Assembly: GCF_003334305.1 (NCBI RefSeq)
Contig: NZ_QOWS01000018.1
Strand: one strand, 5' to 3'
DNA from: Escherichia coli
GTDB taxonomy: Bacteria; Pseudomonadota; Gammaproteobacteria; Enterobacterales; Enterobacteriaceae
DNA length: 64,000 nucleotides
Shown here: in pieces, positions 19,249 to 21,588 of the stretch
Layout: every line of letters starts with the position of its first letter
How positions within the stretch are numbered: position 1 is the first letter of the stretch
The notes under the pieces: model-generated
The model's input: the letters and a program-made list of their open reading frames with translations, nothing else
Databases searched by the model: none
Told to the model about the DNA's origin: nothing
Position numbers and translations under genes: made by a program

Positions 19249-19764
19249 ATGTTGAAACGGATAATCTGGATTCTGTTCTTACTGGGATTAACGGGGGGCT
19301 GTGAGCTATTTGCCCATGATGGCACAGTCAACATTAGCGGATCGTTTCGCCGTAATACATGCGTGCTGGCACAGGATAGCAAGCAAATCAATGTGCAGTT
19401 AGGCGATGTCTCGCTGACACGTTTTTTTCATGGGAATTATGGCCCGGAGAAATCTTTCATCATTAATTTGCAGGATTGCGGAACAGATGTCAGCACGGTT
19501 GACGTCACCTTTTCAGGAACCCCCGACGGAGTGCAGAGCGAAATGCTGTCCATTGAAAGTGGTACGGATGCAGCCAGCGGGCTGGCAATTGCGATTCTGG
19601 ATGATGCGAAGATATTGATTCCGCTTAACCAGGCGAGTAAAGACTACAGCCTACATAGCGGTAAGGTGCCATTAACTTTTTATGCGCAATTGCGACCTGT
19701 CAATAGCGATGTGCAGTCGGGTAAAGTGAATGCCAGCGCGACATTTGTACTTCATTATGACTAA
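19249..19764 (+). CDS. ycbV: Fimbrial-like minor subunit
   Basis: Track ORF trimmed to MLKRIIWILFLLGLTGGCELFA (171 aa); AAGGAG 3 nt upstream of this ATG. Confidence 0.85.
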   Translation: MLKRIIWILFLLGLTGGCELFAHDGTVNISGSFRRNTCVLAQDSKQINVQLGDVSLTRFFHGNYGPEKSFIINLQDCGTDVSTVDVTFSGTPDGVQSEMLSIESGTDAASGLAIAILDDAKILIPLNQASKDYSLHSGKVPLTFYAQLRPVNSDVQSGKVNASATFVLHYD

Positions 19765-20467
19765 TACGTGGAACAGATTGGCGCTCTTGATTTTCGCCGT
19801 TTTATCGCTGCTGGTGGCGGGTGAATTGCGGGCAGGAGTGGTGGTCGGCGGAACGCGATTTATCTTTCCGGCAGACAGAGAATCGATATCTATTTTACTG
19901 ACTAATACCAGTCAGGAATCCTGGCTTATTAACAGTAAAATCAACCGCCCAACGCGTTGGGCCGGGGGGGAAGCGTCGACAGTGCCAGCACCATTACTGG
20001 CCGCTCCGCCACTTATTCTCCTGAAGCCCGGTACTACAGGCACGTTGCGCTTGCTGAGAACGGAAAGCGACATCTTGCCTGTGGATCGCGAAACGCTATT
20101 TGAGTTAAGCATTGCCAGCGTGCCATCCGGCAAAGTTGAAAATCAGAGCGTAAAAGTGGCGATGCGCTCGGTATTTAAACTGTTCTGGCGACCCGAAGGT
20201 TTGCCGGGCGACCCGCTGGAAGCTTATCAACAATTACGCTGGACACGGAATTCGCAGGGTGTACAACTCACTAACCCAACGCCTTACTACATTAACCTGA
20301 TTCAGTTGAGCGTAAATGGTAAAGCGTTAAGTAATGCGGGAGTTGTGCCGCCTAAAAGCCAGCGTCAGACAAGCTGGTGTCAGGCAATCGCACCGTGTCA
20401 TGTCGCCTGGCGGGCGATAAATGATTACGGCGGGTTGAGTGCAAAGAAGGAGCAAAATCTGCCCTGA
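19757..20467 (+). CDS. ycbF: Second periplasmic fimbrial chaperone of the operon
   Basis: Track ORF trimmed to MTNTWNRLALLIFAVLSLLVA (236 aa); PapD-like; start overlaps the ycbV stop. Confidence 0.85.
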   Translation: MTNTWNRLALLIFAVLSLLVAGELRAGVVVGGTRFIFPADRESISILLTNTSQESWLINSKINRPTRWAGGEASTVPAPLLAAPPLILLKPGTTGTLRLLRTESDILPVDRETLFELSIASVPSGKVENQSVKVAMRSVFKLFWRPEGLPGDPLEAYQQLRWTRNSQGVQLTNPTPYYINLIQLSVNGKALSNAGVVPPKSQRQTSWCQAIAPCHVAWRAINDYGGLSAKKEQNLP

Positions 20468-20476
20468 AACAGGTTC

Positions 20477-20492
20477 GGAAAACGTTTGCGTT
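20477..20492. promoter_or_regulatory. Candidate PurR operator upstream of pyrD
   Basis: ggAAAACGTTTGCGtt contains the conserved AAACGTTTGCG core of the pur box; pyrD is a reported PurR target. Confidence 0.5.
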
Positions 20493-20577
20493 TTTTTTGC
20501 CGCAGGTCAATTCCCTTTTGGTCCGAACTCGCACATAATACGCCCCCGGTTTGCACACCGGGAATCCAGGAGAGTTC

Positions 20578-21588
20578 ATGTACTACCCCTTCGTTCGTAA
20601 AGCCCTTTTCCAGCTCGATCCAGAGCGCGCTCATGAGTTTACTTTTCAGCAATTACGCCGTATTACAGGAACGCCGTTTGAAGCACTGGTGCGGCAGAAA
20701 GTGCCTGCGAAACCTGTTAACTGCATGGGCCTGACGTTTAAAAATCCGCTTGGTCTGGCAGCCGGTCTTGATAAAGACGGGGAGTGCATTGACGCGTTAG
20801 GCGCGATGGGATTTGGATCGATCGAGATCGGTACCGTCACGCCACGTCCACAGCCAGGTAATGACAAGCCGCGTCTCTTTCGTCTGGTAGATGCCGAAGG
20901 TTTGATCAACCGTATGGGCTTTAATAATCTTGGCGTTGATAACCTCGTAGAGAACGTAAAAAAGGCCCATTATGACGGCGTCCTGGGTATTAACATCGGC
21001 AAAAATAAAGATACTCCAGTGGAGCAGGGCAAAGATGACTATCTGATTTGTATGGAAAAAATCTATGCCTATGCGGGATATATCGCCATCAATATTTCAT
21101 CGCCGAATACCCCAGGATTACGCACGCTGCAATATGGTGAAGCGCTGGATGATCTCTTAACCGCGATTAAAAATAAGCAAAATGATTTGCAAGCGATGCA
21201 CCATAAATATGTGCCGATCGCAGTGAAGATCGCGCCGGATCTTTCTGAAGAAGAATTGATCCAGGTTGCCGATAGTTTAGTTCGCCATAATATTGATGGC
21301 GTTATTGCAACCAATACCACACTCGATCGTTCTCTTGTTCAGGGAATGAAAAATTGCGATCAAACCGGTGGCTTAAGTGGTCGTCCGCTTCAGTTAAAAA
21401 GCACCGAAATTATTCGCCGCTTGTCACTGGAATTAAACGGTCGCTTACCGATCATCGGTGTTGGCGGCATCGACTCGGTTATCGCTGCGCGTGAAAAGAT
21501 TGCTGCGGGTGCCTCACTGGTGCAAATTTATTCTGGTTTTATTTTTAAAGGTCCGCCGCTGATTAAAGAAATCGTTACCCATATCTAA
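20578..21588 (+). CDS. pyrD: Dihydroorotate dehydrogenase (quinone)
   Basis: Track ORF begins at a TTG; trimmed to the ATG giving [21 protein letters not shown] (336 aa). Confidence 0.95.

Follow-up and report, generated by a model that had tools for sequence, protein, structure and literature searches.

The system closest to the one analysed here is the catalogued PurR site of pyrD in Escherichia coli K-12 (RegulonDB; Cho et al. 2011, PMC3159470). The literature has described control of pyrD by PurR since 1990; it is recorded in RegulonDB and was seen in vivo by ChIP-chip in 2011. Direct repression of pyrD by PurR is credited to Wilson & Turnbough 1990 in both PMC3159470 and PMC6245113, and dual purine and pyrimidine control of pyrD in Salmonella is given in a RegulonDB paper, which cites Vial, Baker & Kelln 1993 for it. 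The ChIP-chip study, which refers to pyrD as a 'previously characterized PurR-binding promoter region', assigned to it a peak at K-12 positions 1,003,618-1,004,017, with a log2 ratio of 1.01 in the presence of adenine and no peak in its absence (PMC3159470). This signal is among the weaker ones of that study, in which the peaks ranged from 0.84 to 2.08. Table 1 of the same paper places the pyrD motif, CGGAAAACGTTTGCGT, at K-12 1,003,889-1,003,904, and the same 16-mer is among the 15 cognate PurR sites from RegulonDB that were used in a 2008 study (PMC2585596). The biological meaning is an established cross-talk, through which pyrimidine synthesis is lowered when purines are abundant.

Other PurR-controlled genes differ from pyrD to varying degrees. 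PurR mostly binds sites that overlap the promoter, and it represses the pur genes much more strongly (PMC6245113), whereas the pyrD box lies 5' of the -35 region and its effect is weak. A 2018 review puts the weak repression of pyrC and pyrD by PurR on a level with that at promoter P1 of carAB, which is three- to four-fold (PMC6245113). The PUR box of carAB P1, centered at -128.5, resembles that of pyrD in serving a pyrimidine-pathway gene, in lying upstream of the core promoter and in mediating modest repression by purines. However, PurR alone cannot repress carAB and needs the remodelling induced by PepA (PMC6245113), and the pyrD box is much closer to its promoter, at -62.5. To our knowledge, pyrD has no known PepA-like partner, nor any sign of one. 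At purB, PurR acts as a roadblock (PMC6245113), unlike in the mechanism proposed for pyrD below. Finally, pyrC shares with pyrD the weak repression by PurR, the CTP/GTP start-site switching and a leader hairpin (PMC6245113, PMC6524683, PMC7818426); it is a separate locus outside the DNA studied here, and was missed by the ChIP-chip study that recovered pyrD (PMC3159470).

The window, by which we mean the whole stretch of 64,000 nucleotides that was analysed, is E. coli chromosomal DNA with the gene order ycbF, pyrD, zapC. Every one of the 5,426 complete E. coli genomes was matched by a query of 401 bp around the site, many of them with 100% identity, and in the RefSeq annotation of such identical DNA a fimbrial chaperone gene, ycbF, is followed by pyrD and zapC. 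Positions 20468-20577 coincide exactly with the intergenic region of 110 bp between ycbF and pyrD, the pyrD ATG being at 20578. RefSeq annotates ycbF of strain E2865 as a frameshifted pseudogene, the DNA of this strain having been compared, and found identical, over window positions 20300-20700 only. In the window itself, ycbF (19730-20467) is an unbroken open reading frame of 245 amino acids, overlapping the end of the preceding ycbV-like frame.

With the pyrD ATG as the reference, K-12 positions 1,003,889-1,003,904 correspond exactly to window positions 20476-20491, and the two sites show no difference: the 16-mer, its position relative to the ATG and the organism are all the same. The sequence at 20476-20491 is thus almost certainly the known PurR operator of E. 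coli pyrD, one layer in the layered control of this gene. The site was already known, and it represents ordinary textbook regulation rather than a discovery. Our re-examination corrects the anatomy, placing the centre of the operator at about -62.5, outside the leader and upstream of the promoter; it shows a phylogenetic footprint that extends widely across the Enterobacteriaceae; and it distinguishes two operator alleles within E. coli, which go with the neighbouring fimbrial operon being present or absent. The features of the locus are collected in Table 1.

Table 1. Positions of the genes and control elements around the pyrD operator (window coordinates).
Feature	Position	Strand	Basis or remark
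ycbF, encoding a fimbrial chaperone, final elf/ycb operon gene	19730-20467	+	ORF list and RefSeq annotation
16-bp pur box, PurR operator of pyrD, CGGAAAACGTTTGCGT	20476-20491	none	consensus, weight matrix, identity with ChIP motif, conservation
T8 tract, promoter-proximal, about -55 to -48	20491-20498	+	conservation anchored on the -10 hexamer
Nearly invariant block CAGGTCAATTCCCTTTT, contains TTCCCT	20503-20519	+	conservation profile and alignment
Weak -35-like hexamer TTCCCT	20511-20516	+	17-bp spacer to the -10 hexamer
-10 hexamer CATAAT	20534-20539	+	invariant ATAAT; independent MAFFT alignment
Start-site-switching run CCCG	20545-20548	+	mapped from the descriptions in PMC6524683 and PMC7818426
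Leader hairpin CCCGGU/ACCGGG, in C-started transcripts only	20545-20562	+	Rfam and folding
pyrD Shine-Dalgarno sequence AGGAG	20568-20572	+	read from sequence; invariant in alignment
pyrD, quinone-dependent dihydroorotate dehydrogenase, 336 aa	20578-21588	+	ORF list and RefSeq annotation

The pur box starts 8 bp after the stop codon of ycbF and lies within the region controlling the pyrD transcription unit, 43 bp 5' of the -10 hexamer. It is an imperfect palindrome of 16 bp centred on a CpG, and takes the form ACGCAAACGTTTGCGT or ACGNAAACGTTTGCNT expected of a member of this class. The purF operator is the reference pur box for crystal structures of PurR bound to DNA. Compared to this operator (cvpA-purF-ubiX, AAGAAAACGTTTGCGT), the pyrD box is identical at 14 of the 16 positions, and both show the same asymmetry, with one arm a near-perfect GTTTGCGT and the other GAAAAC.

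The original prediction had proposed a PurR operator at 20477-20492, reading ggAAAACGTTTGCGtt and lying 86 bp from the pyrD ATG. Both the string and the distance are correct, and the pur box is real, but its dyad centre is the CpG at 20483/20484, which sets the symmetric 16-bp register at 20476-20491, one base further to the left. The run of eight T residues said to follow the 16-mer is also present, at 20491-20498, and begins within the 16-mer as framed in that prediction, sharing its final two bases. The purine-repressor control of pyrD that had been proposed is well established in the literature, where the identical motif appears both in the ChIP-chip data and in RegulonDB (PMC3159470, PMC2585596).

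We found that the classical consensus ACGCAAACGTTTTCNT is matched at 15 of 16 positions by the minus strand of 20476-20491. When one mismatch was allowed, this was the single match in the window, where 0.02 were expected, and any match at all occurred in only 2 of 100 dinucleotide shuffles; at three mismatches the search became uninformative, with 2.9 matches expected in the window. The 8-bp core AAACGTTT, the 'conserved core' of the original prediction, is present, but taken alone it is not significant in the window (2 occurrences against 1.59 expected). The specificity of the pur box therefore comes from the outer positions, that is, from the flanking GC and GCGT.

To build a position weight matrix for PurR, we took the motif instances that Cho et al. 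2011 tabulate under ChIP-chip peaks in their Table 1 (PMC3159470), 27 in number once the pyrD site was left out. With this matrix, the pyrD box scored 21.06 bits, while the runner-up position on either strand of the 64 kb reached 11.18 bits. In a leave-one-out scoring of all 28 ChIP sites, which spanned 7.4 to 25.1 bits, the pyrD box ranked 11th, so that the weight-matrix check suggested along with the original prediction returned a score in the middle of the range of validated pur boxes. Based on the exact score distribution, 21.06 bits corresponds to p = 4.9e-8 per position, and at this score chance alone would give 0.006 sites in 64 kb, about 0.46 in a genome of 4.6 Mb and 1e-5 in the intergenic region. 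The lesser matches in the window all remained at or below 11.2 bits, with about 2.9 expected by chance at 11.18 bits or above. Those at 21566-21581 (minus strand, at the 3' end of pyrD), 59467-59482 (minus strand) and 58572-58587 (minus strand), with 10.9-11.2 bits, are at chance level and were not taken as sites, and the second AAACGTTT core of the window, at 58380, was rejected as a pur box by the matrix scan.

A scan of 20300-20700 for consensus sigma-70 promoters called none, the pyrD promoter having 8 of 12 matches. Because of the poor -35 hexamer, TTCCCT, we placed the pyrD promoter using its description in the literature together with the invariant ATAAT, which was found no more than 70 bp 5' of the ATG in 115 of 116 loci among the matches listed, and which also served as the anchor of the conservation profile. 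Mapping the published start sites onto the window put the CTP starts at 20545/20546 and the GTP start at 20548, the GTP-started transcript being the one without the two 5' C residues (PMC6524683; PMC7818426). Relative to the C start at 20546, the pur box spans -70 to -55, 5' of the weak -35-like hexamer.

The Rfam family PyrD_leader (RF02373), whose gathering score is 47, matched 20510-20583 at 97.9 bits, which makes the region a full member of the family. The leader hairpin pairs 20545-20550 with 20557-20562 and adjoins the ribosome-binding site. Folding gave -13.6 and -10.5 kcal/mol for transcripts from the C starts versus -6.4 kcal/mol for the G start, energies that fit the known control by CTP/GTP start-site switching. 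The pur box at 20476-20491 lies outside this region, 5' of both the RF02373 match and the starts at 20545-20548. Centered at about -62.5 and upstream of the -35 hexamer, it is an upstream operator, and its placement in the pyrD leader by the original prediction does not hold. The RF02373 model takes in about 35 nt of promoter DNA 5' of the starts described in the literature, the leader of the real transcript being about 30-33 nt long. Two further Rfam matches, RmaA and SNORA57, were discarded as noise (E-values of about 0.6-0.8, far under their gathering scores).

To obtain a phylogenetic footprint, we retrieved pyrD loci with a degenerate pattern derived solely from the first nine codons of pyrD. 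Since this pattern contains coding sequence only, the resulting sample of at least 120 loci is unbiased with respect to the box. Among the matches listed, 116 species had at least 150 bp of upstream sequence, and 104 of these carried a box of at least 13 bits within 150 bp of the ATG, where about 0.002 were expected per locus. Among the 116 species listed, a box reaching 13 bits was absent from most loci of Erwinia and Pantoea and from a few further ones. The six bases 5' of the box showed background conservation, and sequences further 5' could not be aligned.

The boxes fell into two positions. Among the matches listed, the box starts at -97 to -102 from the ATG in 33 species (Escherichia, Salmonella, Citrobacter, Kluyvera, Pseudocitrobacter) and at -108 to -113 in 71 species (Enterobacter, Klebsiella, Raoultella, Leclercia, Kosakonia, Buttiauxella, Cedecea and others). 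Measured from the box start to the -10 hexamer, the distance is about 59 bp in one class and about 68-69 bp in the other, with no intermediates among the 104 species listed. The difference is a spacer of 9-10 bp between box and T-tract, about one helical turn in length and not conserved in sequence. An ancestral indel, or two of them, could account for the two spacing classes, which do not have to mean a constraint on helical phase.

The gene upstream of pyrD is a divergent ssuE in 92 loci, and a co-directional ycbF-like gene occurs in E. coli-type and Pseudocitrobacter loci only, both among the matches listed. The box is present with either neighbour and therefore travels with pyrD. Two of the database records that turned up in this sample are out of place taxonomically. 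A 260-bp contig with a coverage of 1.2 that is assigned to Alkalicoccobacillus porphyridii has exactly the sequence found upstream of E. coli pyrD, and an enterobacterial ssuE-pyrD region is present on a contig assigned to Chryseobacterium sp. 18061; both have the look of contaminated or wrongly labelled assemblies.

When 114 distinct species sequences were aligned on the -10 hexamer, the T-tract, at positions of about -53 to -48, showed 1.2-2.0 bits of conservation, and the distance between T-tract and -10 hexamer remained constant whether the pur box abuts the tract or sits about 10 bp further 5'. UP elements, to which the C-terminal domain of the RNA polymerase alpha subunit binds, extend from -57 to -38, with a distal subsite at -57 to -47 and a proximal one at -46 to -38, and on promoters with a weak -35 hexamer this domain normally docks at about -55 to -48. 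The position of the T-tract corresponds to the distal subsite, and the tract may resemble such a subsite in function as well. Its match to the distal subsite is a partial one, with an A/T fraction of 0.68 over -57 to -47, and the proximal region, at 0.32, is rich in G+C, so that the tract is a putative UP element.

The position of the palindrome between ycbF and a run of eight T residues also raises the question of an intrinsic terminator for the ycbF (elf/ycb fimbrial) operon, with a merely secondary likeness to a pur box. We consider this very unlikely. It would account for the end of ycbF 8 bp upstream of the palindrome, for the T residues directly after it, and for the occurrence of the uninterrupted T8 allele in genomes with a ycbF-like gene upstream (E. 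coli, Pseudocitrobacter); Kluyvera ascorbata, however, has the T8 with a divergent ssuE. Folds of 20455-20500 and 20470-20500 gave as the best RNA hairpin an A-U-rich structure of -4.7 kcal/mol that uses the U-run itself and is no better than those of shuffled sequences (z = -0.37, with 70 of 200 shuffles equally good), and a terminator scan found none on the plus strand there. Furthermore, box and T-tract are conserved in 92 species with a divergent ssuE (among the matches listed), where there is nothing to terminate, and the T-tract keeps a fixed distance to the -10 hexamer, not to the box. Given the weak fold, the absence of a call on the plus strand and the fact that mostly no co-directional gene lies upstream, the T-run is a promoter-proximal element, and neither a terminator nor a part of the operator.

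Two further readings concern the box itself. In one, the box serves another LacI/GalR-family repressor instead of PurR; in its favour, a CG-centred AAACGTTT core is common to several operators of the LacI family and, as described above, is not distinctive in the window. This is even less probable than a terminator, as the outer positions specific to pur boxes match as well (G at 3, GC at 13-14, GT at 15-16), yielding 21 bits with a matrix made of PurR sites only, and as PurR occupies the region in vivo in an adenine-dependent manner (PMC3159470). That the box is a chance match without function has a negligible probability. Sites of such a score are indeed expected at about 0.46 per 4.6-Mb genome, and a comparable match appeared in 1 to 2 of 100-200 shuffled 64-kb windows, but this one sits in the 110 bp that control a nucleotide-biosynthesis gene, where the expectation is 1e-5; its position is conserved in 104 of the 116 species listed, while the adjoining DNA is not; and it lies under a PurR ChIP peak (PMC3159470). 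The conservation and the ChIP data already contradict a chance origin.

When purines are plentiful, the PurR dimer, together with hypoxanthine or guanine, binds 20476-20491, and its presence just 5' of the pyrD core promoter lowers transcription modestly, about two-fold according to the literature. PurR is known to kink its operator by about 45 degrees at the central CpG (PMC2585596), and at pyrD it would be expected to do so between -70 and -55. The bound repressor would then directly abut the T-tract, at the place where the alpha C-terminal domain would contact the DNA, and could reduce initiation without occluding the core promoter. Since the box abuts a conserved T-tract and PurR kinks its operator, PurR most likely acts by interfering with upstream contacts between polymerase and DNA, a mode of action that would leave the -35 and -10 hexamers accessible and would fit the weak repression. 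Control by PurR is layered on the separate, known pyrimidine control exerted by start-site switching at 20545-20548 and the leader hairpin at 20545-20562.

We compared the pyrD control region across the complete E. coli genomes and found two alleles, at about 75% and about 25%. In the majority allele, present in 4,073 of the 5,426 genomes, the alignment continues across the ycbF junction and CGGAAAACGTTTGCGT is followed by T8, with a score of 21.1 bits. In the minority allele, found in about a quarter of the genomes, the alignment begins only at window position 20478, and a divergent ssuE lies about 236 bp upstream. Here, AAGAAAACGTTTGCTA is followed by TATTTATT, one base shorter, and the score is 14.0 bits. 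The minority allele resembles the sequences of E. albertii and of the cryptic Escherichia clades. The edge of the fimbrial island thus falls at or within the pyrD operator region.

PurR at pyrD might work through an upstream 'anti-UP' mechanism, obstructing or wrongly bending the tract next to the box on which the alpha C-terminal domain docks, in which case the two alleles might confer different strengths of purine control on different strains. We regard this combination as a tentative idea that is rather doubtful at present; neither the anti-UP mechanism nor allele-specific control is addressed in the cited literature. If true, the 21-bit allele with T8 and the 14-bit allele with TATTTATT would bring about a strain-specific purine control of pyrimidine synthesis.

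Finally, the alignments revealed a further conserved element between the T-tract and the -10 hexamer. The block CAGGTCAATTCCCTTTT, at about -43 to -28, is almost invariant in 114 enterobacterial species and is largely retained even in Erwinia. This degree of conservation exceeds what the weak -35 hexamer within it would appear to need, and the block could be an extra protein-binding site or an unusual promoter element.
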